From the NCBI GenBank assembly GCA_963721685.1, contig CAVRJJ010000005.1, forward strand, positions 396,980-460,979: a stretch of DNA of 64,000 nucleotides, written 5' to 3'. Below, in pieces: positions 4,953-45,515 of the stretch; within the stretch, counting starts at the first letter, position 1, and each line of letters opens with the position of its first letter. Position numbers and translations under genes: made by a program. This DNA comes from an uncultured bacterium. Lineage in GTDB: Bacteria > Patescibacteriota > Saccharimonadia > UBA4664 > SCTI01. Below the pieces are notes generated by a model. That model saw only the letters and a program-made list of their open reading frames with translations. It was not told the DNA's origin and ran no database searches.

Positions 4953-4966
4953 TGAGCTTCAAGCAA

Positions 4967-9738: not shown

Positions 9739-9821
9739 AATTCTAAGTCTAGGATCTTAAGCATTTTCTCAGACAAGTTTTTATGCTTGGAGAGTCATAA
9801 AGACGAAAGGAATAAAAAAGT

Positions 9822-10454: not shown

Positions 10455-10484
10455 AAATAATGGCTTTGCGAAGGTATAATTGCA

Positions 10485-10559: not shown

Positions 10560-10646
10560 AAGCCGTGTTTTAACCATGTTATGGTACCGTGCGCAACAGC
10601 TTTGCGCAAGGATTGTAGTATGCTTGAAATGAAGAGAAGGGACATC

Positions 10647-12059: not shown

Positions 12060-12119
12060 TATGAACGCCGTCGCACAATATACTTGGCGACAGCATAAGC
12101 TTTTTGCTAAACTAGCGGT

Positions 12120-13334: not shown

Positions 13335-13366
13335 GAAACCTACCATAAGCGTGTTATTATAACGGT

Positions 13367-17892: not shown

Positions 17893-20094
17893 GTGACTGA
17901 TTTATTAAGCAGCTTGAATGAGCCCCAGCGTGAAGCAGTGCTTACGACCGAGGGGCCCGTATTAATGTTGGCCGGAGCCGGCAGCGGCAAAACCAAGGCT
18001 CTTACCCATCGTATTGCCTATCTGGTAGCGGAAAAGCAAGTACGGCCATCTAACATCTTGGCTGTGACCTTCACCAATAAAGCGGCAGGCGGAATGCGCC
18101 AGCGGGTATTAAGTTTGCTTGGCCGCGGGGTGGAAGACCGCCAGTACTTTCCCTACATTGGGACGTTCCACGCGATTTCCTGCCGGATGCTGCGCCGGGA
18201 TTATAAAGCCGCCGGCTTAAGCTCTACTTTTACCATTTTTGATATGGCCGATAGTTTAAGCGCCATCAAGCAGGCAATGCGCCAAATTGGGGTGGATGAA
18301 AAGCGGTTTACTCCAAGCCTGATGGCTAATTTAATTTCAAGCGCCAAGAACCAGCTAATTGGTCCCGACCGCTACGCAAGTTATGTGAAAGGTGAGGCCG
18401 GGGAAACCGCGGCCCAGATATACCCCCGCTATCAGCGCATCTTAACCGAAGCCAACGCCGTCGATTTTGATGACATTATTATGAAAACCGTCCAATTATT
18501 GCGTGACCCGGAATTATTGAAGCGTTGGCAGGAGCAATTCCATTATATTTTAATTGACGAGTATCAAGATACCAACCAGGCCCAGTACCAACTTACCCGC
18601 CTGCTTGCCGCCAAACATCACAATATTTGCGTAGTTGGTGACGACTGGCAAGCCATTTATTCCTGGCGGGGCGCTAACTTCCAAAACATTTTAGATTTTG
18701 AGAAAGACTATCCTCAGGCGAAGGTGATTAAGCTGGAGCAAAATTACCGATCCAGTAAAAACATTTTGGACGGCGCCCACGCCATTATTAGCAAAAACCA
18801 TGTCCGTTCGGATAAAAAGCTGTGGACAGATGCCGACGGAGGTTCCGGCATAAAGGTCTTAACAACCTACGACCAACAGCAGGAAGGTGATACGATTGCC
18901 ATGACCATTGAACGAACCATGCGTGAAAGCCACACCTTACAGCGGGGGTCTAGCACTATCAAGCGGAGCGCGCAGCTTAAGGATTTCGCGGTGCTTTATC
19001 GCATGACCGCCCAATCACGGGCTTTGGAAGAGGCATTCTTGCGCCATAACATCCCCTATAAAATTGTTGGCGGAACGCGTTTTTACGAGCGGAAGGAAAT
19101 CAAGGACGTGCTGGCCTATTTGCGGTTTATCAATAATCCCGATGATATTATTAGCTTTGGCCGCGTGGTAAATGTACCCGCCCGAGGATTGGGAGAGCGC
19201 AGCATGGAGCGGCTGTTGGCTTATGGCCGCGAGCACCAGCTGTCAATCCTGGATACCCTGCAGGCGGCTGGATCAATTGAAGCGCTTACGCCGCGTGCGC
19301 GCAAAGCGCTTACTGATTTCTCAACCGTAATAGTAAGTCTTCGCGGTCAAGTGGATGCCCTGCCCGTGGCGGAGCTGCTTCAGCAAACGGTTAAGCAAAC
19401 CGGCTACCTGGCATCATTGGAAGATGGCAGCGTGCTCGCGGGTGACCGCATCGAAAATGTGAAAGAGCTGTTGAGCGTCACGGCCGCTTACGACGGCATG
19501 GGGTTAAACGAATTCCTCGAAGAAATCGCGCTGATCACCGACCTTGATAATTACTCCACTGAAACCAACGCGGTTACTTTAATGACCCTGCACGCGGCGA
19601 AGGGTTTGGAATTTCCGGTGATTTTCATGCCCGGTATGGAGGAAGGCATTTTCCCCCACAACCGCAGCCTTGGTGATGGTGCCCAAATGGAGGAGGAACG
19701 CCGTCTCTGTTATGTCGGGATGACCCGCGCCAAGCAAGAGCTTTATTTGCTCCATGCCCAATCCCGGCTGCTCCATGGCCAGGTTCAGCACAACCCCCCG
19801 TCGCGCTTTCTTCTAGATGTGCCGCTGGAGGTACAGGACGCTGCTAACGCGGTGCGGCCATCGGGAAGGCTTGAGGTTAGCCCGGCGGGCTGGGGCCAGG
19901 TTCAAGCGGCACCAGAGCTGGCACCAGAGCTGGCACCGGAAAAAGCCGATTTAGCACCGGGAGATAAGATCCGCCACGCTAAGTTTGGCGAAGGAATTGT
20001 TATTGGCGCTAAGGGGGATGACTTAACCGCCGCCTTTGAAGGAATCGGCACCAAGCATTTAAGCTTATCCTTTGCTCCGGTTGAAAAACTATAA
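17893..20094 (+). CDS. pcrA: ATP-dependent DNA helicase PcrA/UvrD
   Basis: 733 aa with Walker A AGAGSGKT, motif TFTNKAA, ILIDEYQDTN, and LEQNYRS. Confidence 0.9.
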   Translation: MTDLLSSLNEPQREAVLTTEGPVLMLAGAGSGKTKALTHRIAYLVAEKQVRPSNILAVTFTNKAAGGMRQRVLSLLGRGVEDRQYFPYIGTFHAISCRMLRRDYKAAGLSSTFTIFDMADSLSAIKQAMRQIGVDEKRFTPSLMANLISSAKNQLIGPDRYASYVKGEAGETAAQIYPRYQRILTEANAVDFDDIIMKTVQLLRDPELLKRWQEQFHYILIDEYQDTNQAQYQLTRLLAAKHHNICVVGDDWQAIYSWRGANFQNILDFEKDYPQAKVIKLEQNYRSSKNILDGAHAIISKNHVRSDKKLWTDADGGSGIKVLTTYDQQQEGDTIAMTIERTMRESHTLQRGSSTIKRSAQLKDFAVLYRMTAQSRALEEAFLRHNIPYKIVGGTRFYERKEIKDVLAYLRFINNPDDIISFGRVVNVPARGLGERSMERLLAYGREHQLSILDTLQAAGSIEALTPRARKALTDFSTVIVSLRGQVDALPVAELLQQTVKQTGYLASLEDGSVLAGDRIENVKELLSVTAAYDGMGLNEFLEEIALITDLDNYSTETNAVTLMTLHAAKGLEFPVIFMPGMEEGIFPHNRSLGDGAQMEEERRLCYVGMTRAKQELYLLHAQSRLLHGQVQHNPPSRFLLDVPLEVQDAANAVRPSGRLEVSPAGWGQVQAAPELAPELAPEKADLAPGDKIRHAKFGEGIVIGAKGDDLTAAFEGIGTKHLSLSFAPVEKL

Positions 20095-21075
20095 GGAGGG
20101 TGTGTCAAAATTGGTGAGCAGGGTTGAAAGGTCAATAATATTAACGACCCCGTCTTCATTAAGATCGCCTGGTATACGCGGGCCAGCCTGGCCATAATTA
20201 TTAACGAGTACGCTAAGATCGGACACGCTTACCGAGACACCACCATCGGCAGACAACGTTTTTGCTCTCTCCGCGGACCGAAGCGTTTCCGACGGCTTGG
20301 ATACATTACCCTGGGCGTCAAAGGCAACTACATGATAGGAATACCCCTTCTTAGGCTCCACACCGGTGTCTGTATAGGTTGCGTCGGGGCTGCTGGCAAC
20401 TTGAACGCCGTTCCGGAAAACGCGGTAACCGCGCACTGAAACATTATCAACCGAGGGGCTCCAGCTAAGCGTGTTAGAGGCAGCGTCGGAGCGCGGGAGT
20501 GTCAGGCTTTCCGGAGCGCTCGGAGGGCTTTGGTCGGTGATTGTGTAGCTGCCAACATATTTCCTTATTTTTTTAACGCTGCTATCGTTTGCCCGCAAAA
20601 GCGTCGCTTCCGGCGTGAATTGAATGGAAGTTGTGCCGGAGCCGATTGTTACGAAATTGACAATGGCTATCTCTTGGACACCCGCTACCGATTTGCCTTC
20701 CTCGGCCGTCAAAGCGACGCGCACCGTGCCATCGCTTCCCTCGGCTAACGTTACCGCGGGAAAGGCGCTGGTAGCGGTGCTAATGCTGCTGAACCGCAAC
20801 TTGGTTTGGTCGTAAGTCAGCCCAGCCTGAATCGCCTTAACCGGATCGGCCCCATTATTGGTAAGGATGGTTACACTTACGGTTGATCCAAGGCTAAGGT
20901 TGGCCTGAGCCGGGTGCAGTGACAGGCTATCGCCCGCCGCCAAGCTTTTGTACACTACCATGATGCCCGCTAGCACAATTAATCCGGTCAACGTGGCCAC
21001 TAGCTTTAGGCGGGGATGCAGCTGCGTGAATACCGGAGGTTCCGCTTGTTTCCTCGTCTTTTTAGGTGCATTCAT
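20089..21075 (-). CDS. membrane-anchored surface protein: cohesin-like domain + fibronectin type III + C-terminal dockerin-like repeat
   Basis: It has an N-terminal TM and a cohesin-like segment paralogous to the upstream gene. The FN3-like region is SWSPSVDNVSVRGYRVFRNG..YSYHVVAFDAQGN. The C-terminal Ca-loop-like DLNEDGVVNIIDLSTLL is a dockerin signature. Confidence 0.5.
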   Translation of the reverse strand: MNAPKKTRKQAEPPVFTQLHPRLKLVATLTGLIVLAGIMVVYKSLAAGDSLSLHPAQANLSLGSTVSVTILTNNGADPVKAIQAGLTYDQTKLRFSSISTATSAFPAVTLAEGSDGTVRVALTAEEGKSVAGVQEIAIVNFVTIGSGTTSIQFTPEATLLRANDSSVKKIRKYVGSYTITDQSPPSAPESLTLPRSDAASNTLSWSPSVDNVSVRGYRVFRNGVQVASSPDATYTDTGVEPKKGYSYHVVAFDAQGNVSKPSETLRSAERAKTLSADGGVSVSVSDLSVLVNNYGQAGPRIPGDLNEDGVVNIIDLSTLLTNFDTPSL

Positions 21076-21959
21076 TATTTACGTCTCCGGTGTGAGGCCC
21101 ATATAAAGCTAAACAACAAAACTTCAACGCATAAGGCAGCGTACCAAACCAGGTCAGGGGAATAGCGCTTTGTTGCTAATCGTACGGTGTGGCGATGGAG
21201 GACTAATTCGGACCGAGGGTTAATAACAAAGGAACTGGCACGGGCTTGCCCATGAGCAGTTGTGGCTACTGGGTGTGCGCCTGAAGGTACATCATAAAAG
21301 CTGGCAACGCCGGTTGAGTCGGTTGTAGCGGTTGTATTGCTTACAGTAACTTTAGCGCCGGACACGGGTTTGTTATCTCTGGTAAGCACTTTTATAGCAA
21401 GTAGGTAGGAAGATGCTTTTTTCCTGTCTCCGGTGGTACTGTGGGTTGCCTGTCCGCCGGGCCGCAGGCTGAAGTTTCCGCCCGCGAGCGCTCCGTTCCA
21501 GATATTCTGATTGGGATTAGCTTGCTCGATAGCCGAGGCAGAATCAAAAGATAGGGCGGTAGCGCCAGTGCTGGCAAGCACCTTGAATGTGGCCGATCCT
21601 ACCAGTTGATTGCCGGTTAACGGAGAAGGGAGTTTAGCCCGGACAATTCGCAGTTTTCCTTGACCCCCCATTTCGACTGCCCGGATATTGAAGGCACTTG
21701 AAGCGGTGTCAATGCTTAGCAGCTCGAGGTGAAGAGGATTATAGGTCAAGCCAGCTTGGACAGCGTTGACGGCAATTGTCCCGCTGTCTTCTTTAATAGC
21801 CACTGTGAACGTACTGCCCTTTGTGTAGGTGCCGCTGGAAGGTGAAAGGGTGAAAATCCCTGTTCTTGTTGCTGCCTGACCGGGATGCGGCATACATACT
21901 ATAAGGCCCAGCGCTAAGCCCAGCGACCATCTCACCACGTTAGTTGCGAGCCTAATCAT
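21075..21959 (-). CDS. secreted cohesin-like domain protein with C-terminal hydrophobic anchor + basic tail
   Basis: It has a signal peptide. The cohesin-like region VNAVQAGLTYNPLHLELLSIDTASSAFNI is paralogous to VKAIQAGLTYDQTKLRFSSISTATSAF in the next gene. The C-terminus is LVWYAALCVEVLLFSFIWASHRRRK. Confidence 0.45.
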   Translation of the reverse strand: MIRLATNVVRWSLGLALGLIVCMPHPGQAATRTGIFTLSPSSGTYTKGSTFTVAIKEDSGTIAVNAVQAGLTYNPLHLELLSIDTASSAFNIRAVEMGGQGKLRIVRAKLPSPLTGNQLVGSATFKVLASTGATALSFDSASAIEQANPNQNIWNGALAGGNFSLRPGGQATHSTTGDRKKASSYLLAIKVLTRDNKPVSGAKVTVSNTTATTDSTGVASFYDVPSGAHPVATTAHGQARASSFVINPRSELVLHRHTVRLATKRYSPDLVWYAALCVEVLLFSFIWASHRRRK

Positions 21960-28642: not shown

Positions 28643-29344
28643 ATGAGAAGTTTGCGGTGGCTGGTGGTGCTCGTCGTGCTCCTGGGAACCAATGAGGTTT
28701 TCGCGGAAACATTGCGCTCCCCCAACTTTACAATTGATGAAAGCTTTGTGGGCGGGGGTGGCCAGGTTGAAGGCAGTTCAACAAACTTTAAGGCCCGGGA
28801 CGCGATAGGTGAGGCGGGGGTGGGCGATTCCAGCTCTACCAATTTCCAAACCAACTCCGGATACATCACCACCAATGATCCCGCCCTGACGTTTGTGGTG
28901 AACACCACCACCATTAATTTTGGCGCCCTTTCAACCTCGGCTACCGCCACGGCCAACTCCACCTTCAGTGTCATCAATTACACCAGCTATGGGTACGCCG
29001 TCCAAACGGTGGGGCCGCCGCCCCAAACGGGCAGCTATACGCTAACCGGTATGTCTACGGCCGGCCCTTCCCAAACCGGGGTTGAGCAATATGGTATTAA
29101 TTTGCGCGCCAATACCTCTCCGGTAGCATTCGGCGGTAATCCTCTCGGAGGCTTTGGCACGGCAGCGAGCGGCTATGCCCTTCCGGATAATTTTAAATAT
29201 ATTGCCGGGGACACGATTGCCTCTGCTCCTAAAAGTTCCGGGCAAACCGATTACACAATTTCATATATCGTTAACGCTTCGAGTAATACAAGAGGTGGAA
29301 CGTACACCGGCATTCAATCATTAGTATGTACCGGCACTTATTAG
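28643..29344 (+). CDS. secreted Thr/Ser/Gly/Asn-rich paralog 1 (WxL-like candidate; C-terminus ..SYIVN..TYTGIQSLVCTGTY)
   Basis: It has a signal peptide and shares a mid-protein motif (EQYGINLRANTSP vs SQFGINLVSNTTP vs SQFGVNLRANATP) and a C-terminal Y-x-C tail with the next two ORFs. Confidence 0.5.
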   Translation: MRSLRWLVVLVVLLGTNEVFAETLRSPNFTIDESFVGGGGQVEGSSTNFKARDAIGEAGVGDSSSTNFQTNSGYITTNDPALTFVVNTTTINFGALSTSATATANSTFSVINYTSYGYAVQTVGPPPQTGSYTLTGMSTAGPSQTGVEQYGINLRANTSPVAFGGNPLGGFGTAASGYALPDNFKYIAGDTIASAPKSSGQTDYTISYIVNASSNTRGGTYTGIQSLVCTGTY

Positions 29345-29417: not shown

Positions 29418-30482
29418 ATGAAATCAAAACTCCAGTCGCTCCTAAAAAATATCTCGCCATTCGTTATTACCGGGTTGCTATTATCATCATTTTTGCCAGG
29501 CATAGCTAACGCCGCGCAAATAACCAACCGCAAAGTTACCCTGGGAACCTCGCAGCCCAGCGTATCGACCAGCCACAACTACACCTTCACCGCTCCTTCG
29601 GCTACAACCGTACAGTCTGTTGATTTCCTTTACTGTACCGCCCCGTCGGGTACCTGTACGACTCCAGCAGGAATAACTACAACCACCGCAGCCTTAAATG
29701 GTTCGCCGGGCAACCTGGGCAGTGGCGGCACCTGGACGATTGGCGGCACCCCCACAAACGGGCGTGTACAGATTGCCAACGCTTCCAATACGGGGTCACC
29801 TAGCGCTGGCGCAACCGTTAACTTCAATACCATTACCAACCCGAGTCTCGGCGCAAACAACCAAAATAGCTTTTATGTCCGCATCGTAACCTACTCCGAT
29901 GCCGCTTGGACTACCCCCATCGATTCAGGCACGGTAGCCGGGAGCGTTACCAACCAGATCCAAGTAACCGCTTCGGTGGATGAAACGCTTAACTTCTGCG
30001 CCTTCCAAACCGGCACCACTTGCGCCAATGGCACGGGGACTACCGTAGCGCTCGGCACCCTAAGCAGCTCTACCCCAACCAGCAGTACCTCAAAAATGGT
30101 CGCTGGAACCAACGCTACCTCGGGATATGTAATTCAGTACACGGGCGCAACTTTAACCAGTGGTCCTAACACCATTGCTGCAACCGGGACGGGCGGAGCC
30201 ACTTCTGCAGCAGGGAGTTCACAATTTGGCATTAACTTAGTCTCCAATACCACACCTTCAGTTGGCTCGGCTGCCTCGGGTGGCACGGGAGCTGCTTCTA
30301 CGAACTATGCCACCGCAAATACTTTCTCTTTCGTGCCCAGCACCTTAACTCAAGTTGCTTCGGCCGCGGCGGCGACTTCGGATACCCTCTACACCGTGGC
30401 GTACCTGGCTAACATCTCGGCGGCCCAGCCGGCGGGTGCTTATTCCACAACATTGACCTATATCTGTACCGCGACCTTCTAA
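29418..30482 (+). CDS. secreted Thr/Ser/Gly-rich paralog 2 (C-terminus TLYTVAYLANIS..AYSTTLTYICTATF)
   Basis: It has a signal peptide ending ANAAQI. After processing the N-terminus is AAQITNRKVTLGTSQP, paralogous to AAQIDSRKLTLGTSSP of paralog 3. Confidence 0.5.
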   Translation: MKSKLQSLLKNISPFVITGLLLSSFLPGIANAAQITNRKVTLGTSQPSVSTSHNYTFTAPSATTVQSVDFLYCTAPSGTCTTPAGITTTTAALNGSPGNLGSGGTWTIGGTPTNGRVQIANASNTGSPSAGATVNFNTITNPSLGANNQNSFYVRIVTYSDAAWTTPIDSGTVAGSVTNQIQVTASVDETLNFCAFQTGTTCANGTGTTVALGTLSSSTPTSSTSKMVAGTNATSGYVIQYTGATLTSGPNTIAATGTGGATSAAGSSQFGINLVSNTTPSVGSAASGGTGAASTNYATANTFSFVPSTLTQVASAAAATSDTLYTVAYLANISAAQPAGAYSTTLTYICTATF

Positions 30483-30484: not shown

Positions 30485-31555
30485 ATGGGGGCGATGCCAC
30501 AAAATTTGACCAGGAGGCTGGCTCAAATTACGATTGGCGCCTTGCTGATCTGTCTTATAGCGCCTTTTAGTGCCAACGCTGCTCAAATTGATTCCCGTAA
30601 GCTGACGCTTGGTACATCCAGCCCGCTGGCTAGCACCACCTATACTTTTACCTTTACGGTGCCCACAACCGGAGCACCGGTTCTCAGTTGGGAGGCCCAA
30701 ATCTGCACTACTCCATCAGGGGCATGCGTAATGCCTCTTGGGTTTGTTAACTCCAGCTCAATTAACCAGCCGACGGGGCTTGGCGATGCCAGCGGATGGA
30801 CGGGAAATACCGCTACAGCTGGCAGTCTGAGGATGTCAAACGCAGGAAATGCAACTGTACCCAGCGGCAGCCAAACGGTTACTTTTAACTCTGTTACAAA
30901 CCCAAGCACACCCAACCAGACGATTTATGCCCGAATAACTACCTATGGCGGATCTACCTGGAACCCCCCGATAATTGACACTGGTACAGTCGCGGCTAGC
31001 ACGGCTAACCAGATTCAACTAAGTGGGACTATGGATGAATCGCTGGTCTTTTGTACCGGCACCAGTATCACCGGCACTAACTGTGGCACCGCGACTGGCA
31101 ATGCCGTTAACTTTGGAACATTTTCAACTTCAACAACTCGGACCGGCACCTCGGTAATGGCTGCATCAACGAATGGACAAAGCGGCTACAGTATTACCTT
31201 AAACGGCACTACCATGACTTCAGGATCAAATACTATCCCGGCGATGGGTGCGCAATCGGCAAACGGCGCGGCCGCAGCTTCAAATGTGGGGACTTCCCAG
31301 TTTGGTGTTAACTTGCGCGCTAATGCTACGCCAAGTGTCGGGGCGGACCTGACGGGTACTGGCTCTGGTACTTACGGGACAAACTACGGCATTGCTGACT
31401 CATTTCGTTTCTTTACCGGGGATTCGGTAGCGACCGCCGCAACCTCTACCGATGCCAATGCTTTTACGGTTTCATACATCGTAAACGTAGCCGGCAACCA
31501 GCCAGCGGGAACCTACGTAGCCAATATGACCTATATTTGTACCGCTACATTCTGA
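30485..31555 (+). CDS. secreted Thr/Ser/Gly-rich paralog 3 (C-terminus AFTVSYIVNVAG..TYVANMTYICTATF)
   Basis: It lies 2 nt after paralog 2 and has the same architecture and terminal motif. Confidence 0.5.
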   Translation: MGAMPQNLTRRLAQITIGALLICLIAPFSANAAQIDSRKLTLGTSSPLASTTYTFTFTVPTTGAPVLSWEAQICTTPSGACVMPLGFVNSSSINQPTGLGDASGWTGNTATAGSLRMSNAGNATVPSGSQTVTFNSVTNPSTPNQTIYARITTYGGSTWNPPIIDTGTVAASTANQIQLSGTMDESLVFCTGTSITGTNCGTATGNAVNFGTFSTSTTRTGTSVMAASTNGQSGYSITLNGTTMTSGSNTIPAMGAQSANGAAAASNVGTSQFGVNLRANATPSVGADLTGTGSGTYGTNYGIADSFRFFTGDSVATAATSTDANAFTVSYIVNVAGNQPAGTYVANMTYICTATF

Positions 31556-31559: not shown

Positions 31560-32564
31560 ATGGAAGGCATGAAAGCGCTTCGCTTAGTTATGGGAATTTG
31601 GTTATTGGTGGCGGCTGCTGCTGTCACGACGGGCTTATCGGCCGAAGCCGCCACCCCTTCTGTCACCACCTCACCCGCGACCGCCCAGGGGCTGGAAATC
31701 TCACCTCCGGTAATAGAACTCAGGGCTGATCCTGGGCAAACCCTGACGGTTCAGATTCGATTACGCGATGTTTCAAGCGGGCCCCTGGTGGTGCGGGCAA
31801 CAGCTGACGACTTTGGCGCTAAAGGCGAAAATGGGGACCCGCAAATACTGCTTGATGAAAAAGAGGCTACCCGTTACTCATTAAAGTTTTGGGTAGAACC
31901 GCTCCCAAGCTTTAGCTTGGTGCCCCAGGAAGTAAAAACCATTCCGGTGAAAATTGTCGTCCCCGCCAACGCTGAACCCGGCGGGCATTATGGCGTGATT
32001 CGTTTTACCGGTACACCTCCTGAGCTGGAAGGCACCGGAGTGTCATTAACGGCAAGCCTGGGTGCGCTGGTGCTGTTACGGGTTTCCGGCGACATTACTG
32101 AAAAGCTGGCAGTTGAAGAGTTCTATACGAGCAAAACATTGGAGAATAAGAGTGTAAAAAAGACCGGGTTTTTTGAAACCGGTCCCATCGGATTTACCGA
32201 GCGCCTGAAGAATGGGGGGAGTGTTCACGTTAAACCAGTGGGTTATGTTTCTGTTTACAATATGTTTAACAAACGGATTGCCCAGCTGCCAGTCAGCAAT
32301 CCGGCGCGCAATGTACTTCCTAGCAGTATTCGCAAGTTTGACCAACAACTTGAAACAAAACGACTTTTTGGCCGCTACACCGCCAAAATGGATGTGAGCT
32401 ACGGGTCGGGGAAGCGGCTTACTGAAACGGTCAGTTTTTGGGTCATCCCATACAAGCTAATTCTCATTGCCCTTGTAGCTATCATTCTGCTTATTGTGGT
32501 ACTCCGCCAGGGACTGAGGCGCTATAACCGGTGGATTATTAGCCAAGCATCCCGCCGGCGATAG
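31560..32564 (+). CDS. DUF916/DUF3324-like (CscB-like) cell-surface protein with C-terminal TM anchor and basic tail
   Basis: After the signal peptide come two beta-rich domains (PPVIELRADPGQTLTVQIRLRDVS...VPANAEPGGHYGVIRF; VKPVGYVSVYNMF...FWVIPYK), then a TM (LILIALVAIILLIVVL) and RQGLRRYNRW. This architecture matches the DUF916+DUF3324 proteins that accompany WxL proteins in Firmicutes. Confidence 0.45.
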   Translation: MEGMKALRLVMGIWLLVAAAAVTTGLSAEAATPSVTTSPATAQGLEISPPVIELRADPGQTLTVQIRLRDVSSGPLVVRATADDFGAKGENGDPQILLDEKEATRYSLKFWVEPLPSFSLVPQEVKTIPVKIVVPANAEPGGHYGVIRFTGTPPELEGTGVSLTASLGALVLLRVSGDITEKLAVEEFYTSKTLENKSVKKTGFFETGPIGFTERLKNGGSVHVKPVGYVSVYNMFNKRIAQLPVSNPARNVLPSSIRKFDQQLETKRLFGRYTAKMDVSYGSGKRLTETVSFWVIPYKLILIALVAIILLIVVLRQGLRRYNRWIISQASRRR

Positions 32565-32606: not shown

Positions 32607-33560
32607 ATGGGTATTAAAACGGGGCGGCTACACCCCCACCATCACACATCATATCCAGCCCTAGCTTTTTTACTGGTGCTGACCGCGCTGCTCTTGGCGG
32701 CGGTTAACTGGAATATTTCCGCGGCCACCCTGACGACCACGGGGAGTGTGAGTCTCAGCGGGGAAATGGCAGGACCTCCGCCCACGGCACCTCCTTCAAT
32801 CCAGTCACCAACCATGGGACAACGCTTTACTAGGACGCCGGTAAATGTTTCCGGAACATGTATAGGCGGTTTACGGGTAGTAATACTGCGCAGTAATGTG
32901 GTGGCCGGTCAAACATACTGCACCTCGGGGGGATCGTTCCAGCTTATGGTGGATCTCGTGCCTGGTGCAAACGACCTTACTGCCCGGCAGTATGATGCCC
33001 TAGACCAAGCCAGTCCCAGTTCACCGGCTGTAACGGTGTTTTATGACAAGCCCTCTGGCCCAAACGTGCTTGTTCCGGGACATCCAAATGCCCCCAAGCT
33101 AATTAATCCGGTGGTTGAAAGCCAGCCCTTCATTATTTCCAGCGCGTTCAGTGGACGCCATATCTTTCCGGAAACTGAATTCAAAATCCCGATTGATGTT
33201 GCCGGCGGGGTTGCCCCTTACGCGGTCCATATCGATTGGGGAGACGGCGGAAGCAGCTTGCTGAGCATGGCTAAAGCGGGTTCGCTGAACGCGCCCTACA
33301 CCTACGCGAGTCCTGGAATTTATAGTGTCATAATCAAGGCAACGGATGCCAATGGGGCCGCGGCCTATTTCCAGTCGGCGTTAACGGTGAATGGAAAAAC
33401 GGTTGCTCCGCCTGCAACGACTTTGCCGGACCGACAGATGATTATTTTATGGCCAATTTTCATTATTATTGGCGCGTTGGTGCTGGGTTTTTGGCTGGGG
33501 GACCGGTTTGAAAACGGACGCTGGCGCCACCGGCAGGAAAAAGCTCCCGGGCTTAGCTAA
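32607..33560 (+). CDS. membrane-anchored PKD-domain protein (signal peptide, PKD-like domain HIDWGDGGSS..YTYASPGIYSVIIKATDANG, C-terminal TM)
   Basis: The W-x-D-G-D-G ... Y-x-Y ... G-x-Y-x-V pattern of PKD domains is present, and there is a C-terminal TM (MIILWPIFIIIGALVLGFWL). Confidence 0.5.
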   Translation: MGIKTGRLHPHHHTSYPALAFLLVLTALLLAAVNWNISAATLTTTGSVSLSGEMAGPPPTAPPSIQSPTMGQRFTRTPVNVSGTCIGGLRVVILRSNVVAGQTYCTSGGSFQLMVDLVPGANDLTARQYDALDQASPSSPAVTVFYDKPSGPNVLVPGHPNAPKLINPVVESQPFIISSAFSGRHIFPETEFKIPIDVAGGVAPYAVHIDWGDGGSSLLSMAKAGSLNAPYTYASPGIYSVIIKATDANGAAAYFQSALTVNGKTVAPPATTLPDRQMIILWPIFIIIGALVLGFWLGDRFENGRWRHRQEKAPGLS

Positions 33561-33611
33561 TCCGCTTACGCTTTTCTTCTTGTTCCAACAGATCATAACT
33601 GTTATGCTTGA

Positions 33612-36449
33612 ATGGTAGAAAAGTGTGTCCGGATACTACTTAAGTTAGTTGCCAAAATGTGGAGTAACAAAATCATTAAAAAAAGCTTAATAAAGCTAAA
33701 GTTTGCAGTCCGCATATTAATGGTCGGCTTGTTTGTGGTGATTGGGGGATTTCACGTTGGCAGTTTTGCGCCGCAAGCTGAGGCCGCGGCCGGCATAAAC
33801 CAGCAAATAAATTTTCAGGCGCGCTTGCTTAATTCTCAAGGTGCGACCGTTCCTGACGGGACGTATAACGTTCAATTTAAAATTTACCAGGATGGTACCG
33901 GCTGTGTCGTTAGTGGCTCATCCCCCTGTGGCGGCACGTTGCTATGGACGGAAAGCTGGCTTAACAATACGACTCAAGGTGTAGCCGTAAAAAACGGGTA
34001 TTTTTCTGCCTATCTCGGCTCGATCAGCTCGCTTGCAGGTGTTGACTTTAATCAAGACTCCCTCTGGTTGTCTCTTAATATTGGGACAACCAACCCTAGC
34101 TGTACGCCATTTACGAATTGTGGCGGAGATGGGGAAATGCTGCCGTTTAAGCGGTTTGCCTCTAATCCCTACGCCCTCAACTCCGGCAAGCTTTCCGGCC
34201 TCACCTCCTCACAGTTCGTCCAATTAGCCCAAGGCGTACAGGTGGATACCTCTACCGCCTCCTCAATCTTCATCAACAAGACCGGAGCTACCGGAAACAT
34301 CATCCAACTCCAAGACGCCGGTACCGACGCCTTTGTGGTCGGTAACGCTGGTAACACCAGTATTAACACCAACTCCGCAACCGCTTTAACCGTCCAGAAC
34401 GGCTCTAACAACGCCTTTGGCGTCGATACCTCTAACATCAAAGTAGCTATTGGACTGTCTACCGCCTCTGCTAGCTCAAGGCTAAGTGTCGCCGGACAAG
34501 GAGCCGCCAACGGCATTACCTTAGGTGACGGGGCAACCGGATCAGCCAACCTGTATGTTAGCGCCAATGATACCCTTAAGACTGATGACGCGTTTCATAT
34601 AGACACTGATGTCGCTTTAGCCTTTCGCCTTCGTGATGCAGCCGGTACCACCACCATTTTAACGGTAGATAATTCAACAGGAAACATGAGTATAGGAGCG
34701 ACAGATACTTCCACGTATAGACTCAAGGTAGTGAGCGCCACAAATACCGGAATCCAAGTCATAAACACAGCTTCCCCCAGTGCGACTTCCGGGGCTGGCA
34801 TTGTCGGCCATCTATCCTCTCTGCCCACAGCCGCCAACCAGCGTATGGGGTACTACTTGTTTGGCACTACAACAGCCAATAGTGCTGGTCTGTTAGGCTA
34901 TTCGGAGCAGGCACATAGCGCTGCCAATAAAGGTACCTATCTTAGCTTTGAAACCACCAACCTTGATACCAATACACGCGGCGAGAAGCTTCGTATTAGT
35001 GCTAATGGTAATGTAGGGATTGGCACAACGGGCACGCCATCTGCTCTTTTGCAGTTAGGTTCAGATGCTGGTACCGCCGCCAGCGGTATTATGCTCGGCA
35101 GCGGAGCTGATTTGGTAACCCTTTACCGCTCGGCTGGAGACACCTTAAAGACGGATGATAGTTTGGTGGTCGGCACTGGGCTGACGGTATCAGGCGGAGG
35201 AACCAGTATTACCGGCAACTCCACCATATCTGGTATCTTAGGCGGTGTAACGGATTTTACCCTTTCGGGCAGTATCTCCGGCGGCACAAGTTATTCAGGG
35301 TCGGCCAACATTACCTCAACCGGCGGCTCGATTATCGCAGCAACCCATACCGGCCCAGGCGCGGTGACGGTTTCGTCTGGTGGGTCAAGCGCTCTAACCC
35401 TCACCTCAGCATCGGGGACAGCTATTTTAGGTGGCACCACCAACAGCATTCAGCGTACCAATTCAGCATTAGAGCTTGATGTCGTAAATGCCGCGGCAGC
35501 TTCAACCTTAAATGTCACAAACTCTGATGGATCGCAAGTAGCCAATCTTAACGTTGAAGGCGGACTCAACATTGGTTCGGGACAAACCTACAAGATAAAT
35601 AACGCCGACATTAATTCGGCCGGTACCCTCACTAATGTTGCTTATGAGAATCAGGCTAACGTGTTTACGGCAGCCCAGTCATTGCAGCACACCAACGCGA
35701 GCGCGTTCTTAATTCAAACAAACTCCGGGGGTGCGACACTGTTAACAGCTGATACCAGTGCCATGATAATTAAAATTGGAACGGCTAGTGCCGGAACATT
35801 ATTAGGCGTTGATCTCACGGTGAGTGAAGCTGAGGTTACGACCACGCTACGCGTTGGTACTACGAGCAATGGCATGGATTTCAGCGCATCCGGGGTTACC
35901 TATTATGGGACAGGAGCCAATCTTTCCAGGCGTCTCGTGCTTTCTCCGGAATACCCCGGCGGCACTTTAAGCCCCGATACTACCAGCAACGTAGGAACCA
36001 TGACCTCGGATAGTGAACGGGCAACCGCTAATAATTGGCGCAATTACTATAACTGGGTTTCTACCCAAGCCACCAACCAAGACTATGATATTCTTGTGCG
36101 CGTAATTTTACCGGCGGATTTTGTTAGCTGGGAAACCGGCTCCTGTCCTGGAAGCGCCTGTGCCCTTGAGATTGAATATAAAACCGGGCTGGCCGCCACC
36201 ACCAACAATGGTGTCTCAGGTTTCATCTATAACGCTTCCAGTGATACGGCGATCTGCGCGCTGGCTGAAGCTGGGAGTACGAGCTGGACCAGTTTTGGCT
36301 GCACATCGGCCACCTTAGATGATGGTGGTACCGACCTGGACACCGCTGGCCAGGTCGCGGTTATACGGATCACCCTTAAGGCCAACAGCACGGCTTCCGC
36401 GGCCGCGCGGGCTGGCGATATAGTCCTAAGGTATAAGGCGAAGTACTAG
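33612..36449 (+). CDS. large (about 930-945 aa) secreted tail-fibre-like repeat protein
   Basis: The N-terminal module is INFQARLLNSQGATVPDGTYNVQFKIYQDGTG..LWTESW. Long Gly/Thr/Ser/Ala beta-helix-like repeats with ISANGNVGIGTTGTPSALLQLGS-type motifs, common in phage tail fibres, follow. A likely internal start is MWSNK at 33657. Confidence 0.5.
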   Translation: MVEKCVRILLKLVAKMWSNKIIKKSLIKLKFAVRILMVGLFVVIGGFHVGSFAPQAEAAAGINQQINFQARLLNSQGATVPDGTYNVQFKIYQDGTGCVVSGSSPCGGTLLWTESWLNNTTQGVAVKNGYFSAYLGSISSLAGVDFNQDSLWLSLNIGTTNPSCTPFTNCGGDGEMLPFKRFASNPYALNSGKLSGLTSSQFVQLAQGVQVDTSTASSIFINKTGATGNIIQLQDAGTDAFVVGNAGNTSINTNSATALTVQNGSNNAFGVDTSNIKVAIGLSTASASSRLSVAGQGAANGITLGDGATGSANLYVSANDTLKTDDAFHIDTDVALAFRLRDAAGTTTILTVDNSTGNMSIGATDTSTYRLKVVSATNTGIQVINTASPSATSGAGIVGHLSSLPTAANQRMGYYLFGTTTANSAGLLGYSEQAHSAANKGTYLSFETTNLDTNTRGEKLRISANGNVGIGTTGTPSALLQLGSDAGTAASGIMLGSGADLVTLYRSAGDTLKTDDSLVVGTGLTVSGGGTSITGNSTISGILGGVTDFTLSGSISGGTSYSGSANITSTGGSIIAATHTGPGAVTVSSGGSSALTLTSASGTAILGGTTNSIQRTNSALELDVVNAAAASTLNVTNSDGSQVANLNVEGGLNIGSGQTYKINNADINSAGTLTNVAYENQANVFTAAQSLQHTNASAFLIQTNSGGATLLTADTSAMIIKIGTASAGTLLGVDLTVSEAEVTTTLRVGTTSNGMDFSASGVTYYGTGANLSRRLVLSPEYPGGTLSPDTTSNVGTMTSDSERATANNWRNYYNWVSTQATNQDYDILVRVILPADFVSWETGSCPGSACALEIEYKTGLAATTNNGVSGFIYNASSDTAICALAEAGSTSWTSFGCTSATLDDGGTDLDTAGQVAVIRITLKANSTASAAARAGDIVLRYKAKY

Positions 36450-38200
36450 TGCGCAGGACTAGGTTTGCACTATGGTTGAATGATTCATTAATAGCTGCGT
36501 TGTGTTTTGCGCTGGCTTTTTTCTGGCTCGGCAGTATTACCTTTTTCCCCAAAAGCGCCAACGCTGCCCCCGCCAACATGCTGCTGCTGTGGGAAAGCGC
36601 TTCGCCGCCAACTGGCTGGAGTTTTGTCAGTACCTACAATGGCCGGTTTGCCAGAGGGGAATCCGAAGCCAATGTCGGGCTAACTGGCGGTACCGCGTCG
36701 GTGGTGATTTCGGTTGCCTCAACCACGGTTGCCAGTATCTCAGATACCAGCTCCAACGGAGGCTTAAACCTTACTGCCCGTTCAGCGTCAGGCCATACCC
36801 ACGCCATTACCGGGCAGTCCACAACGGTAACTAGCACTGCTGGTACCTGGCCGCCAGCTTACCGCTCGCTTCGGGTGATAAAGCCAACCGCTAACGGTAT
36901 GAGCGGTACAGTTCCGGCCGGGGCAATTGCCATGTTTGATGATTCGCCTGGGATGCCGGGCTCTAATTGGACGCAGTACACTGACATAAATGGTAGAATG
37001 CTCATGTTAGATAGTTCGATCGCGCCAACTAATGGCGGAAATGACACAAAATCATTTACGGTTACCTGGGGAGCGTTAGGGGCTGCTTCTGGCAACCAAA
37101 ACACTGGTACCGGTGGCGGAAACTTTGGGGCAGCTACTACCCATACCCACACGGCTCCAGCCCAAACGGTAATTACCGATGCTACGCTTCCCATCCACGT
37201 CCAACCGGTTTTTGCCAAAGCAACCGTTGATACGGTAGTGCCGCCAGGCATGCTTACGTTATTTGATGGTACACTGGGTGCCGGTTGGCAGGTACAGTCG
37301 GCTAGTGGCGGCACCTATTTTCAAAATTTTCTCCGCGGGGCCGCGGCCTATAGCGCCGCGTGTGCCTCAACTTGCGCCAACACCTTTAACCAGCCAGTCG
37401 CGACGTCTGGGGCCACTGGTAACTCCGGTACCACTACCGCCCAAAGCGCAACAGATGGCAACTTGGCCGGCCCTAGCCATACTCACACCGAAAATATGAA
37501 CTTTACGGCCGGAACGGCCAACGTTCCTCAATATGTAAACTTAGTTATCGCGAAAAAGATTGGTTTCACCGCCAACAGCTACAGGTGGTGGTATGACAAT
37601 GATAACCAGAATGTGGCTACAGCTTGGGGCACGCCAGCTATTGCAGAAGCCACCCCGATCTCGACCATACCGGCTCCAAGTGACCCGCCAATTCCAACTG
37701 ATGAGTTGCGTTTGCGCACAAACATGATTGTGTCCGGCCCGCTTTTACCGGTTAGTACTATGCAGTTTAAACTGCAGTTTAAACAGGGAACCGACCAGTC
37801 CTGTGCCACAGGGAGCTGGACTGACGTAGGCGCAGGAGGAAGTGGCACGATTTGGCGTTTTGCAACATCGGGAGTTACCGATAACACCACTCTGACGGCA
37901 ACCAAGCTTTCGCCGGGCTCGGACGTGCTTGAGCTGTATTCAAAGTCAAACCCCACGGCCGTGAATCCGGCAGCTACCACCGTGAATGGCCAGACCATTG
38001 AATATGATTTTCACATTGAAGATAATGGGGCGCCTGGAGCGACCATGTATAGTTTCCGTCTAGTTGAATCAAGCGGCTTTTTGCTAGCCGCCTACAGCGT
38101 GTGTCCAACCTTGACAACCGCTCCCGATACGGGAAGCTTACTGCGCCACGGTAACTTCTTTGAGAATGAATCGGAAAGGGGGTTCTTTTGGGCAAACTAA
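36449..38200 (+). CDS. secreted protein with three phage-tail-collar-like domains
   Basis: Three repeats of a tail-collar pattern: MLLLWESASPPTGWSF..GRFARG..GHTHAITG; AIAMFDDSPGMPGSNW..GRMLM..THTHTAP; MLTLFDGTLGAGWQV..FLRG..PSHTHTEN. The start overlaps the end of the previous gene. Confidence 0.5.
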   Translation: MRRTRFALWLNDSLIAALCFALAFFWLGSITFFPKSANAAPANMLLLWESASPPTGWSFVSTYNGRFARGESEANVGLTGGTASVVISVASTTVASISDTSSNGGLNLTARSASGHTHAITGQSTTVTSTAGTWPPAYRSLRVIKPTANGMSGTVPAGAIAMFDDSPGMPGSNWTQYTDINGRMLMLDSSIAPTNGGNDTKSFTVTWGALGAASGNQNTGTGGGNFGAATTHTHTAPAQTVITDATLPIHVQPVFAKATVDTVVPPGMLTLFDGTLGAGWQVQSASGGTYFQNFLRGAAAYSAACASTCANTFNQPVATSGATGNSGTTTAQSATDGNLAGPSHTHTENMNFTAGTANVPQYVNLVIAKKIGFTANSYRWWYDNDNQNVATAWGTPAIAEATPISTIPAPSDPPIPTDELRLRTNMIVSGPLLPVSTMQFKLQFKQGTDQSCATGSWTDVGAGGSGTIWRFATSGVTDNTTLTATKLSPGSDVLELYSKSNPTAVNPAATTVNGQTIEYDFHIEDNGAPGATMYSFRLVESSGFLLAAYSVCPTLTTAPDTGSLLRHGNFFENESERGFFWAN

Positions 38201-38841
38201 GTACCATTGCTTCTTCTCGCCTATTTGGTTGGGTTGTTCCGATTGTTGTTGCTGGACTGGGTTTTGCTGCAGTCCAACCCTTGCTTACTTTTCAGGCTAA
38301 AGCGGCGGGTACCTATCGAGCTGGCGCGGATGTGGTGGCAGGGTATCAACAGGTTTATATTCAGGATACCGTGACGCTTGTAAAAACTTATATTACCAGC
38401 GGTCGACAAAATAGTTACGATCCGGAAATTGCCAATAATCAGTACGTGGCCTACAGTGTCGCTAGTAATGATGGCTCCATCCAAGTAAAGCTTTATAATA
38501 TTACGTCATCGTCCACGACTGCGATTGTGAATGACGGCACCAATTTAGACCCTAAAGTTGATCAGGGTATAGTGGTATGGAAAAAATGGGTAACCGACCG
38601 ATGGCAGATCTTTTTATATAATGGTACATCGGCTATACAGATCAGCGCCGGTAACTCATCAGCTCGGCCTGATATTGAAGGAGATCTTGTAACCTACGCT
38701 ACCAAAAATGGCTCGAATATATGGGAGTCTTATAAATACACCATCAGTAGCGGAGCAACGGTTCTGGTTAATAGCGGAAATAACTTTGCTTGGCCGCGGT
38801 TGTCGGGAATAAACGTCATATATGGCTACCGGCTCGACTAG
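38188..38841 (+). CDS. secreted beta-propeller-like repeat protein
   Basis: An N-terminal TM/signal and repeated YxxY..DGS/NGS beta-strand motifs. It overlaps the previous gene end by 13 nt (operon coupling). Confidence 0.4.
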   Translation: MGKLSTIASSRLFGWVVPIVVAGLGFAAVQPLLTFQAKAAGTYRAGADVVAGYQQVYIQDTVTLVKTYITSGRQNSYDPEIANNQYVAYSVASNDGSIQVKLYNITSSSTTAIVNDGTNLDPKVDQGIVVWKKWVTDRWQIFLYNGTSAIQISAGNSSARPDIEGDLVTYATKNGSNIWESYKYTISSGATVLVNSGNNFAWPRLSGINVIYGYRLD

Positions 38842-39668
38842 TTAAGAGTTTTGCGTTCCTCGGATAGGCGCTTACTTACGTTATCAATCTCCCGTATCAG
38901 CGCTACATAGCTTGGGTGGTAACCTTCAGCGGTTTTTATTAAGCCAACCTCGGTCGCGAGGGCTGCGGCCCGTAGCCGATTAAACTGCTCAATTGCGCTT
39001 TGGCGGGCAGACTCAGTTGCGCCTATATCTCCGCTGGAGATGGTAGTCACCAGCTGGGTGAGGCTGGTTTGGGTTTGACTAATTTGTTCCCTTAAGACGC
39101 TATCTGCGGTTTTCCCCTTGACTTGATCCAAGCCAGCTATGGCAGCCTTAGAGCGTGATGCTAAGAGCTCAAACTTTTTTGGCTTGTCGACGCGAATCAA
39201 ATCGCTGATGGGCTGGTACTCATAAAGCTTTGATACCACTTGGCTATAGGCGAGAATCGTATCAATCACGCTTTGCTGGGCTTTTATGACTTCATTTCGC
39301 GTACGTGTGAGTTTTTTAAGTTGAGGTCGAAGCGTCTCATCGACATATTGAGAAGATGGTGAACCGGAGTAAACGCGGTCTATGGTGAGTTCCGTAGGAT
39401 GCCAACTAGCTGAACTCTGAAGTGAGGAAATGATACGGCTATGTCCAGCATTAAAGTTTGACGACTGAATATCAAGACGTTGTAGTTCTTCAAGCAGCAG
39501 GCTTCGCTCTACAAGGCGCGCCCGTGTCTGCCCCAAGGTTATCTCGGTTTGCTTAAGGCTATTGCGAGCCGCAATCTGCGGATAAGGAACAAGCCAATAA
39601 TAGATACCAATAATAAGCGCCAAGATAATGACAGCCCGAAGTGCAATAAAGCTGAGCGTTCTAGCCAT
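38838..39668 (-). CDS. hypothetical N-terminally anchored, largely alpha-helical protein
   Basis: 276 aa with an N-terminal TM (LSFIALRAVIILALIIGIYYW). No recognised family. Confidence 0.4.
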   Translation of the reverse strand: MARTLSFIALRAVIILALIIGIYYWLVPYPQIAARNSLKQTEITLGQTRARLVERSLLLEELQRLDIQSSNFNAGHSRIISSLQSSASWHPTELTIDRVYSGSPSSQYVDETLRPQLKKLTRTRNEVIKAQQSVIDTILAYSQVVSKLYEYQPISDLIRVDKPKKFELLASRSKAAIAGLDQVKGKTADSVLREQISQTQTSLTQLVTTISSGDIGATESARQSAIEQFNRLRAAALATEVGLIKTAEGYHPSYVALIREIDNVSKRLSEERKTLN

Positions 39669-44251: not shown

Positions 44252-45515
44252 ATGGCATTGAAGCTCGTCGATAAAATTCGGAAAAAAGGTGACAGCGAAC
44301 AGTATATTGTGGCGCTGGATATTGGTACCGAATTTGTTAAAGCCCTGATTGGCAGGGTGAAAGGCGATAAGATTGAAATTATTGGAGTTGGCCGGCAACA
44401 TCAGCGCTTAACCGATATGGCATCGGGAGCGGTAACCGATATTGCCGGGGTGGTAGATAACTGTGATGCGGCCCTAAAGCAGGCTGAAGAAATGGCTGGG
44501 GTCGTTGCCAAAGATGTTGTTCTGGGGATTGCCGGAGAGCTGGTAAAAGGGACCTCAACCACCATTAAATATAAGCGCACTGACGCCCAAAGCCGCATTG
44601 AAATGAGCGAACTGCGTAAAATTTTAGACCGGGTTCAAGAGCGGGCATTTGAGCGTGCCCGGGAAACTCTTGCCTGGGAAACTGGCCAACAGGAAATTGA
44701 TGTAAAAATGGTGAACACGGCAATTGTGGATGTCCAAATTGACGGTTACCGGGTTACCAATCCCATTGGCTTCCAGGGGCGGGACGTATCGATTCAGCTT
44801 TTTAACGCGTTCGCCCCAATGGTGCACATCGGGGCCTTGCAGCAAGTAGGCAATAATTTAGACTTAAATATTATCAATATCGCCGCCGAACCATTCGCGG
44901 TGGCCAAAAGTGTTGGCGGGCGAGGATTCCAGCGACTTTAGCGCCATTTTTATTGATATTGGCGGCGGTACAACCGATATTGCGGTGGTTGATAACGGCG
45001 GCGTTGAAGGTACTAAGATGTTTGGAATTGGCGGTCGCTCGTTTACCAAGCGTATTGCCCAAATGATGGACATTAGCTTTGAAAAGGCGGAAGAGTTAAA
45101 GCTGGAATATTCAGCCGGAACGCTGGCTCATGTAGCCGATAAGCAGGCTGTAGCGGAGGCGGTTAAGGCCGATATTAACGTTTGGCTTTCGGGTGTTGAG
45201 CTAAGCTTGGCGGAGTTCACGAAGCTTGATCATCTGCCAGCCAAAATCCTCTTATGCGGCGGAGGTACCGGCCTTCCGGAAATTATGAAAGCTCTTAAGG
45301 GTGACTGGTATAAAGAACTTCCTTTTGCGCGCAAGCCGATAATCAGCCACATTCAACCTTCTATGGTTTCCCGGGTAATAGACACAACCGGGCAGCTTAC
45401 CAGTTACGCCGATATTACTCCGATGGGGCTGGCAAACCTTGGCCTTGATGTTATAAACACCGGCAGTATCAGTGAAAGTGTGCTGCAAAAACTAAGTAAG
45501 AGCTTGCAGAACTAA
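44252..45515 (+). CDS. ftsA: cell division protein FtsA, interrupted by a 1-nt frameshift in an A4 run (44906-44909)
   Basis: Two adjacent track ORFs (44252..44941, 44910..45515) together give a full actin-like FtsA (ALDIGTEF ... IAAEPFAVAK|VLAGEDSSDFSAIFIDIGGGTTDIAV ... LLCGGGTGLPEI). Only the join at aaaagtgttggcg is out of frame. Confidence 0.7.

Follow-up and report, generated by a model that had tools for sequence, protein, structure and literature searches.

How epibionts of the candidate phyla radiation (CPR)/Patescibacteria locate their particular hosts and stay attached to them is a central question, and type IV pili and, recently, Pam pili have been implicated so far, the specificity determinant being known for neither. 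Cultivated Saccharibacteria, as far as they are covered in PMC10633639, grow on Actinobacteria. The locus described here comes from an uncultured bacterium of the Saccharimonadia (GTDB lineage Bacteria; Patescibacteriota; Saccharimonadia; UBA4664; SCTI01) and lies in a stretch of 64,000 nucleotides of contig CAVRJJ010000005.1 (assembly GCA_963721685.1, positions 396,980 to 460,979 of the forward strand), which is referred to as the window and numbered from its first letter. It probably represents the distal half of a Pam pilus cluster, in which the gene for the pilus protein PamR is followed by a host-attachment adhesin cassette working beside the pilus. The cassette encodes a fibre protein of 945 aa (fib945), a head-stalk protein of 583 aa (tri583) and a small secreted protein of 217 aa (p217), and, judged from sequence, it is a strong candidate for host recognition by these CPR bacteria.

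The closest described systems are a pilus, a set of predator fibres and a phage tail module. The PamA and PamB filaments of Candidatus Mycosynbacter amalyticus have been solved, and assembly was proposed to proceed by donor-strand exchange, with PamT as tip and PamR as terminator and anchor; the chaperones PamC and PamD were described as having a transmembrane helix at the C-terminus (Troman et al., 2026; bioRxiv 10.64898/2026.03.03.709456). The same study describes a neighbourhood of pam and ATP synthase genes and mentions in passing a "tail fibre-like protein", which is central in its pamA-neighbourhood network; there, this protein is uncharacterised, and a head-stalk protein, its phage homology, its tail and a small partner are unmentioned. 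The supplement of that study and the M. amalyticus cryo-electron tomography paper hold no information on the fibre-like protein, and a Southlakia transposon-sequencing paper mentions essential adhesins, none of which is mappable to the cassette. The MAT (mosaic adhesive trimer) fibres of Bdellovibrio bacteriovorus have an invariant N-domain, which probably lies close to the surface of the predator (Caulton et al., 2024; PMC10769870). The Actinoplanes phage phiAsp2 (AY576796), whose host is an actinobacterium according to the host field of its record, carries pas28 and pas29 directly after the gene of the 978-aa Pas27, and GenBank lists Pas29 as "possible receptor recognizing protein; contains HXHY motifs". 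Hence, the pilus part of the present locus is already known, whereas, as far as the searched literature shows, a head-stalk-tail protein with a coupled partner, its actinophage homology and the swapping of heads at a fixed locus are undescribed. The locus also makes the uncharacterised "tail fibre-like protein" beside pam operons more concrete.

The genes of the distal half and the modules of their products are listed below, with what each assignment is based on (pLDDT, predicted local distance difference test score):

32607-33560, + strand: PamR (the "PKD protein" of a sequence-only reading of this DNA), 317 aa
33612-36449, + strand: fib945 fibre, 945 aa; alternative starts 33657 and 33720; AlphaFold2 model
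33783-34406, + strand: fib945 N-terminal module (aa 58-265); conservation, pLDDT ~90, Bdello_MAT_N similarity
34407-35711, + strand: fib945 Gly/Ser/Thr/Ala-rich shaft with internal duplication; composition, pLDDT <50 in the monomer model
35712-36446, + strand: fib945 C-terminal beta-sandwich module (aa 701-945); common to triad-linked CPR fibres at 30-37% identity
36449-38200, + strand: tri583 head-stalk protein, 583 aa, GTG start
36449-36565, + strand: tri583 N-terminal hydrophobic helix/signal peptide (aa 1-39, ANA/AP); translation, helix 2-31 in the model
36566-37564, + strand: tri583 head, three tandem HxH repeats (aa 40-148, 153-262 and 263-372); repeat statistics, phage-module homology
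36794-36802, 37142-37150 and 37478-37486, + strand: tri583 invariant HxH motifs; 10 orthologues
37565-38113, + strand: tri583 C-module (beta-sandwich with invariant C452 and C552); same gene position in 14 related loci
38114-38197, + strand: tri583 tail, CPTLxTxP..[ML]RHGxFF..E[RK]GFxWA[DN]; recognisable in 13/13 loci
38188-38841, + strand: p217, propeller-like small secreted protein, 217 aa, TTG start, coupled to tri583
38838-39668, - strand: m276, convergent gene for a membrane-anchored protein, 276 aa

The sequence-only reading had placed four open reading frames on the + strand with overlapping junctions at 36449 and 38188, and their coordinates are exactly as it gave them. At the fib945/tri583 junction, the TAG stop (36447-36449) and the GTG start at 36449 have one base in common. 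The TTG start of p217 (38188) sits 13 nt inside the end of tri583, with the Shine-Dalgarno-like run GGAAAGGGGG at 38173-38182, and the overlap has this length in 7 of 13 related loci as well. Between 28643 and 38841, the + strand carries eight genes, which are 2-73 nt apart or overlap, and a terminator scan of this string found no terminator-like site in any intergenic gap; beyond that absence, promoter and terminator scans were uninformative, and tRNA and Rfam scans of the region found nothing. The genes form a single co-directional, tightly packed string with translational-coupling signals, and the coupling of the surface-protein genes to the upstream locus had been recognised correctly. All window proteins of this string carry an N-terminal hydrophobic or signal segment and have an even cysteine count in the mature protein, which argues for an extracytoplasmic location.

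The three repeats of tri583, which had been noticed from the letters, are present and statistically real, with pairwise Smith-Waterman z = 4.0-4.8 and the observed score being reached by none of 300 shuffles. One HxH per repeat (H116/118, H232/234 and H344/346) is invariant in 10 orthologues. By itself, tri583 has no Pfam, PHROG or NCBIfam match, and sequence and profile searches of the PDB returned chance matches (Fab light chain, Ets-1). Its AlphaFold2 model (pLDDT 76.7, predicted template modelling score 0.70) found nothing at E <= 1e-3 in the PDB by Foldseek, where weak matches to RhoGDI-like Ig folds were all that appeared. Searched against predicted viral structures (BFVD), the same model matched Pas28 (5e-11) and Pas29 (6.4e-11) over >500 aligned columns, and a third viral match was a BFVD protein annotated with a tail collar domain (2.2e-4).

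A profile made from 56 sequences of the tri583 family matches phiAsp2 Pas28 at 82.6 bits, spanning all three repeats, and two bridging members of the family, P0235 and P0275, reach 1e-72 and 1e-71 with Pas28. Over 426 aa, P0275 has 38.7% identity to Pas28 (1e-70), and it has 28.8% to tri583 over the full length (2e-49); it is encoded by a member of the same triad, on a CPR-type contig of 506 kb (L014, 10001-11959), its head has 12 HxH motifs, and it lies a few genes upstream of an ATP synthase operon, which agrees with the pam/ATP-synthase neighbourhood reported by Troman et al. (2026). Pas28 and Pas29 fall into phrog_5795 ("tail protein"), which one tri583 family member matches at 6e-33, and the third Pas28 repeat matches phrog_1800 ("tail collar fiber protein") at 1.2e-6. 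Judged from these alignments, the triple repeat of tri583 is truly homologous to the phiAsp2 Pas28/Pas29 tail-protein module. The proposal that the 583-aa protein carries tail-collar-like repeats thus stood as to a phage tail module, but not as to the tail collar family itself: PF07484 was undetected in the window protein (E <= 0.1), in 84 relatives (28 at E <= 1 and 56 at E <= 0.1) and in Pas28 and Pas29. The relation to the tail collar (T4 gp12-type, MdpB-like) is remote and transitive only, consisting in a similar strand pattern, the HxH logic and the distant links to phrog_1800 and to a viral structure, with no PDB match by sequence or fold.

A tblastn search of tri583 against 50,697 phage genomes (INPHARED) gave no match, the closer bridging module alone retrieving phiAsp2, and a viral relative of the whole of tri583 was not found in IMG/VR. 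The complete module is found on 53 IMG/VR viral contigs, ~30 of which are syntenic phiAsp2-like phages; within that small set the tri583 repeats directly match phage proteins (e.g., 33% over 174 aa, 3e-10), and the CPR C-module, the fibre and p217 are on none of the 53. On the ~23 contigs that are not phiAsp2-like (in L015-L067, by IMG/VR listing), the module is N-terminal in proteins whose length ranges from 423 to 2022 aa, with many stand-alone ones of ~425 aa. Like Pas28 and Pas29, tri583 has repeats with W-P-G..IP.GW starts and conserved HxH, one HxH per repeat being present in tri583 compared with four in the phage proteins. tri583 lacks the N-terminal and short C-terminal parts of the phage proteins, and the phages lack the C-module, tail and partner genes of CPR. 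Because tri583 has no similarity to Pas28/Pas29 outside the repeat module and no phage neighbours, it has a module in common with these proteins and is not a member of the phage family. The word "domesticated", which had been used for these adhesins, presumes a transfer from phage to cell; it is not supported as to that direction, and the cellular family, with 3005 representatives in an exhaustive profile search of the tri583 family, far exceeds the phage set found.

T4 gp12 holds zinc at an HxH-type metal site. In T4 gp37, HxH motifs from three chains bind iron (summarised in PMC11705849). Since the three HxH motifs of tri583 amount to six histidines, the number given by three chains per T4 fibre metal site, a single-chain pseudo-trimer is an attractive hypothesis for the head.

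Behind the head, the C-module and the tail are the constant parts of tri583. The tail is present in 13/13 loci irrespective of overlap by the next gene, and its RHG motif occurs 72 times in 169 family proteins, all of them inside the last 30 residues. Across the family, the head repeats and the C-module are found independently of each other in proteins as long as 6800 aa, and giant proteins carry as many as 13 copies of the C-module in tandem. One of these, P0149 of a Chloroflexota bacterium (2536 aa, MFC1925596.1), has 13 matched stretches, mostly tandem C-module copies, hence the C-module is not confined to CPR. The C-module was also considered as a Pam pilin-type domain, an assignment that was rejected upon profile-profile comparison with Pam pilins/PamT-like proteins (hhalign, probability 0.4%).

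The order fibre, C-module protein and p217-like protein is found in 12 GTDB loci and in L014 and L068, the p217-like gene lacking only in L068; the loci are spread over Saccharibacteria, WWE3, Chisholmbacteria and further lineages. The triad fibres carry the N-module and/or the C-module of fib945, and the triad is often followed by a convergent gene, whose product is a membrane-anchored, presumably helical protein. Pam-like chaperone and PamT-like/pilin genes lie directly upstream of the fibre gene in L007, L008, L012 and L068; L001, L011 and L014 have the triad with no Pam gene within 10 kb upstream, hence the coupling to the pilus is frequent, not obligatory.

The part that precedes the C-module varies by lineage. 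In Saccharibacteria it is the triple HxH head, which occurs in two subtypes, the reduced one of the window and a phiAsp2-like one, and in other loci examined it consists of unrelated regions without an HxH motif. The clearest comparison is offered by L068, another Saccharimonadia contig, which is syntenic with the window over the pam operon, the fibre gene, the gene at the position of tri583, the convergent gene, mnmA and alaS. There, in the protein at the tri583 position (14548-16557), ~8 W-R-x-E-K-R..D-G-x-L repeats replace the HxH head, and the C-module and tail are kept; by the appearance of their motif, these repeats can be read as propeller-type. The head is exchanged between lineages, and the stalk, the tail and usually the partner are constant, which is the pattern characteristic of a specificity determinant carried on an unvarying attachment module.

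The view of the 945-aa protein as fibre-like has held up through its modular conservation, its MAT_N similarity and a match to phage tail fibres. The motif INFQARLL..DGTYNVQFKIY..LWTESW and GNVGIGTTGTPSALLQLGS, both quoted in the sequence-only reading, are present, and the motif type GN[MV][SG]IG[AT]T occurs twice (aa 357 and 466), within a duplication of ~aa 280-360 versus 460-540. The length of 945 aa was given correctly, but the ATG at 33657 yields 930 aa instead of the 935 aa stated for it; the public gene call at 33720 yields 909 aa, and the protein is identical to P0001 from M37 on. With the start at 33720, the signal peptide lacks the basic n-region of the homologues, which the in-frame ATGs at 33657 and 33612 restore, so that either of these is at least as plausible a start as 33720, with no obvious Shine-Dalgarno sequence at any of the three.

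More than 634 relatives of fib945 were found, nearly all of them long (1000-1600 aa), and those with a named source are from Saccharimonadia/CPR metagenome-assembled genomes. One of them, the paralogue P0004, is recorded with a longest contig of the same length (466,349 bp). Among the 118 matches listed, aa 55-260 are covered by all 118 at 50-65% identity, the middle by 1-5 and the C-module (last ~200-250 aa) by ~16-26. The AlphaFold2 monomer model shows a similar division, with pLDDT ~90 for the N-domain, 70-85 for the C-terminal beta-sandwich and <50 for the shaft, and a poorly modelled shaft between confident ends is expected of a fibre requiring oligomerisation. The Bdello_MAT_N model (NF053851) matches 11 of 49 fib945 family members at E <= 0.01, the best at 1e-10. 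Foldseek with the whole model returned the carbohydrate-binding modules CBM86, CBM61, CBM29 and CBM4 (5e-4 to 5e-3, probability ~1.0, ~175 columns), as well as weak matches to a tailspike (depolymerase CBA120 TSP4, 5e-4) and a tail fibre. The shaft is 29% identical to the "tail fiber protein" of the cyanopodoviruses P-SSP2/P-SSP3 (tblastn, E = 2e-5), which may partly reflect composition. None of the 945-, 583- and 217-aa window proteins matches a tail-collar or tail-fibre family in Pfam or PHROGs.

Like the MAT fibres, fib945 belongs to a many-membered family of secreted, phage-tail-fibre-like proteins in bacteria living on bacteria, and in both an invariant N-domain is combined with variable distal parts. 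In contrast to the MAT fibres, fib945 scores far under the NF053851 family cutoff, has no S74 chaperone domain, comes from a CPR bacterium without an outer membrane (as stated for these bacteria in bioRxiv 10.64898/2026.03.03.709456), and sits in a pilus cluster, paired with two further conserved proteins; an intertwined trimeric beta-prism shaft, as in the MAT fibres, is for fib945 a presumption. By these comparisons, fib945 appears to be a fibre that is weakly related, as a distant relative, to the MAT kind.

A gene of the size of p217 follows in 13/13 related loci, in 12 of them with detectable similarity. The sequence-only reading had called p217 a propeller-like secreted protein: its signal segment is there, whereas the propeller label goes back to sub-threshold matches (TIGR02800, TolB propeller, 0.0032; TIGR04275, beta-propeller repeat, 0.0049; both far under cutoff) and to blade-like internal units that align weakly (z = 2.3-4.0). 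The convergent m276 gene has homologues of 27-30% identity at the same position in L004 and L009, and genes of m276-like size and strand at this position in L001, L002, L011 and L068, and m276 may be part of the system; its product has no family match, an N-terminal transmembrane segment and an expected helical remainder.

Upstream of PamR, the string continues with the proximal half of the cluster:

28643-29344, + strand: PamT, tip pilin of the CPR Pam pilus; NCBIfam NF058579, 1.4e-81, 273 bits against a cutoff of 240, i.e., above it
29418-30482 and 30485-31555, + strand: two Pam pilin paralogues; NF058581 C-domain, 1.2e-40 and 1.3e-48
31560-32564, + strand: PamC/PamD-type chaperone candidate, 334 aa; hydrophobic C-terminal stretch (transmembrane helix) in the translation

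These genes had been read as a WxL-like locus, which was not borne out: by the NCBIfam matches to PamT, the Pam pilin C-domain and PamR, they are a CPR Pam pilus operon. The two pilins are 44-45% identical to each other, and the chaperone candidate has homologues in L007, L008 and L068. The WxL surface-protein locus of Firmicutes was dropped as a candidate, its sole trace being a sub-threshold Pfam WxLIP_PGBD match in the chaperone-like gene (0.034, 14.6 bits, cutoff 27.3). The 317-aa protein, encoded directly after the chaperone-like gene and downstream of PamT and the two pilins, matches NF058578 with 260.8 bits (E = 1.2e-77) over profile positions 4-296 of 297; although the curated cutoff of 300 is not reached, it is by this alignment a clear PamR homologue, with an orthologue of 34% identity in L068. 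Its translation shows an N-terminal hydrophobic segment and the hydrophobic C-terminal segment MIILWPIFIIIGALVLGFWLG. The description of this protein as a membrane-anchored PKD protein was therefore right about the C-terminal transmembrane helix, but its PKD and Glucodextran_B matches are all under the Pfam thresholds. By analogy with what was proposed for the Pam system, it would be an RbmA-like pilus terminator and membrane anchor. As PamR, the gene is part of the pilus and not of the fibre set, so that of the single surface module that had been envisaged the tightly packed string stands and the membership of this gene does not. For M. amalyticus, accession numbers imply the same succession of PamT, pilin, pilin, chaperone and PamR, with the difference that, by these numbers, PamB and PamC apparently come after PamR there, and the fibre, head-stalk and propeller cassette does so here.

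In the mechanism that is proposed for the cassette, the invariant N-domain of fib945 would dock the fibre on the epibiont surface, as proposed for the Bdellovibrio MAT fibres, followed by a beta-rich, presumably trimeric shaft and a glycan-binding tip, for which the CBM-like fold, probably the C-terminal beta-sandwich, is the candidate. The head of tri583 would act as a single-chain pseudo-trimer with six histidines binding metal, comparable to T4 fibres, and its stalk, a disulfide-containing beta-sandwich, would present this exchangeable phage-type head and end in a strictly C-terminal tail. The translationally coupled p217 is the candidate partner or anchor of that tail. Surface display, trimerisation, binding of glycans or the host envelope, metal binding, the contact between tail and propeller and the cooperation with the pilus are what we infer from these features.

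Several observations weigh against this mechanism. L068 has no p217 gene, so that the partnership of tail and propeller cannot be universal, and the three triads that lack a Pam gene nearby (L001, L011 and L014) loosen the tie to the pilus. The receptor role of the phiAsp2 module is an annotation only. The shaft of fib945 has a monomer pLDDT of <50, its Bdello_MAT_N match amounts to 18.8-19.1 bits (E ~1e-3; 0.0011) over 43 residues, the cutoff being 60, and the CBM-like match in the model probably concerns the C-terminal beta-sandwich, to which it was assigned by size alone, the aligned region being unreported. Furthermore, the conservation of the fib945 C-module across CPR lineages suits a constant function better than a host-specific tip.

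An explanation that keeps the same genes and changes their role is that the cassette encodes physical components of the Pam pilus, such as a tip or base adhesin attached by donor-strand exchange in the manner of FimH or PapG, with tri583 as a two-domain adhesin. The cassette is contiguous and co-directional with the pam genes in the window and comes after Pam-like chaperone/pilin genes in L007, L008, L012 and L068, the tail fibre-like protein is at the centre of the pamA network (bioRxiv 10.64898/2026.03.03.709456), and tri583 has the order of a binding head followed by a beta-sandwich. Like the chaperone-usher adhesins FimH and PapG, it would carry a binding head on an Ig-like domain and is encoded in a donor-strand-exchange pilus operon. 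However, the profile-profile comparison given above detected no relation of its family and C-module to Pam pilins/PamT-like proteins, the head is phage-type, and none of the Pam models of NCBIfam matches tri583 at E <= 1. Moreover, L001, L011 and L014 have the triad with no pam genes next to it, and in the published model tip and base are already taken by PamT and PamR, respectively. The likeness to FimH and PapG is thus one of analogy only, and a place for the cassette within the pilus itself seems unlikely.

Somewhat less probable still is that these proteins play no part in host recognition and are general components of the envelope or matrix, for instance polysaccharide depolymerases, proteins that bind the cell wall or a scaffold like an S-layer. 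This would suit the tandem C-module arrays in giant proteins, one of which is from a Chloroflexota metagenome-assembled genome, the weak likeness of the fib945 model to the tailspike depolymerase and to carbohydrate-binding modules, and a fib945 C-module that is conserved, not variable, across lineages; it does not suit the swapping of heads at a fixed locus, the homology of the head to a module annotated as possibly receptor-recognising, and the finding that the window proteins have no catalytic domain in Pfam, NCBIfam or PHROGs. The phage-type modules in two of the proteins could also suggest an ordinary or decaying prophage, or the tail-fibre region of a tailocin, which is highly improbable and effectively refuted. 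The flanks are housekeeping genes, with UvrD/PcrA, a G5-transglycosylase (RpfB-like) protein, KsgA, MetRS, TatD, a class-V aminotransferase (cysteine-desulfurase-like) and DUF218 upstream, and MnmA, AlaRS, an FtsA-like gene, MltG, Obg, Def and PurD downstream, and among the 20 flanking open reading frames, ~15 kb on each side, Pfam revealed no gene for a capsid, portal, terminase, tape-measure, sheath, tube or integrase protein. The sequence-only reading, which had seen no capsid, terminase or integrase nearby and did not take the region for a prophage, is borne out by these flanks. In addition, the locus between DUF218 and mnmA-alaS is conserved in L068, no IMG/VR relative of the whole of tri583 was found, the viral contigs with the head module lack the C-module, the fibre and p217, and the GC content around the locus is unremarkable, with no island.

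With the cassette as a host-attachment set beside the pilus, the locus provides two concrete candidates for host specificity, a fibre with a probable lectin-like tip and a swappable, actinophage-like head at a fixed position, and the findings point to the sharing of modules between phages and episymbiotic bacteria. Given that phiAsp2 and cultivated Saccharibacteria both have actinobacterial hosts, a receptor class common to the two is plausible. More tentatively, the tri583 head could be a receptor-binding module common to, or exchanged by, Saccharibacteria and actinophages on the same hosts, with swaps at the locus setting host range and the HxH repeats mimicking a metal-clamped trimer tip. 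If this were true, the hosts of uncultured CPR bacteria would be predictable from likeness to phage receptor-binding proteins. The candidates are testable, and each functional step ascribed to them is one that we infer.

Some features of the window lie outside the pam string and its cassette. The GC content steps from 0.43-0.48 (window positions 1-10000) to 0.54-0.55 (10000-16000), with a tRNA-Glu gene (10485-10559, - strand) at the boundary. The FtsA/PilM-like gene of the downstream flank (44252-45515) is split into two overlapping open reading frames of 229 aa and 201 aa, to both of which a single 422-aa orthologue of L068 aligns (75% and 69% identity). The reading frame changes near 44917-44922, which reflects either a frameshift, caused by a sequencing or assembly error, or a pseudogene. 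On the - strand, 20089-21959 holds two adjacent genes for putative secreted proteins that have N-terminal hydrophobic segments, one with cohesin and fibronectin type III domains and the other with a CarboxypepD_reg-like domain, which form a second putative surface-protein set ~7 kb upstream of the pam operon.

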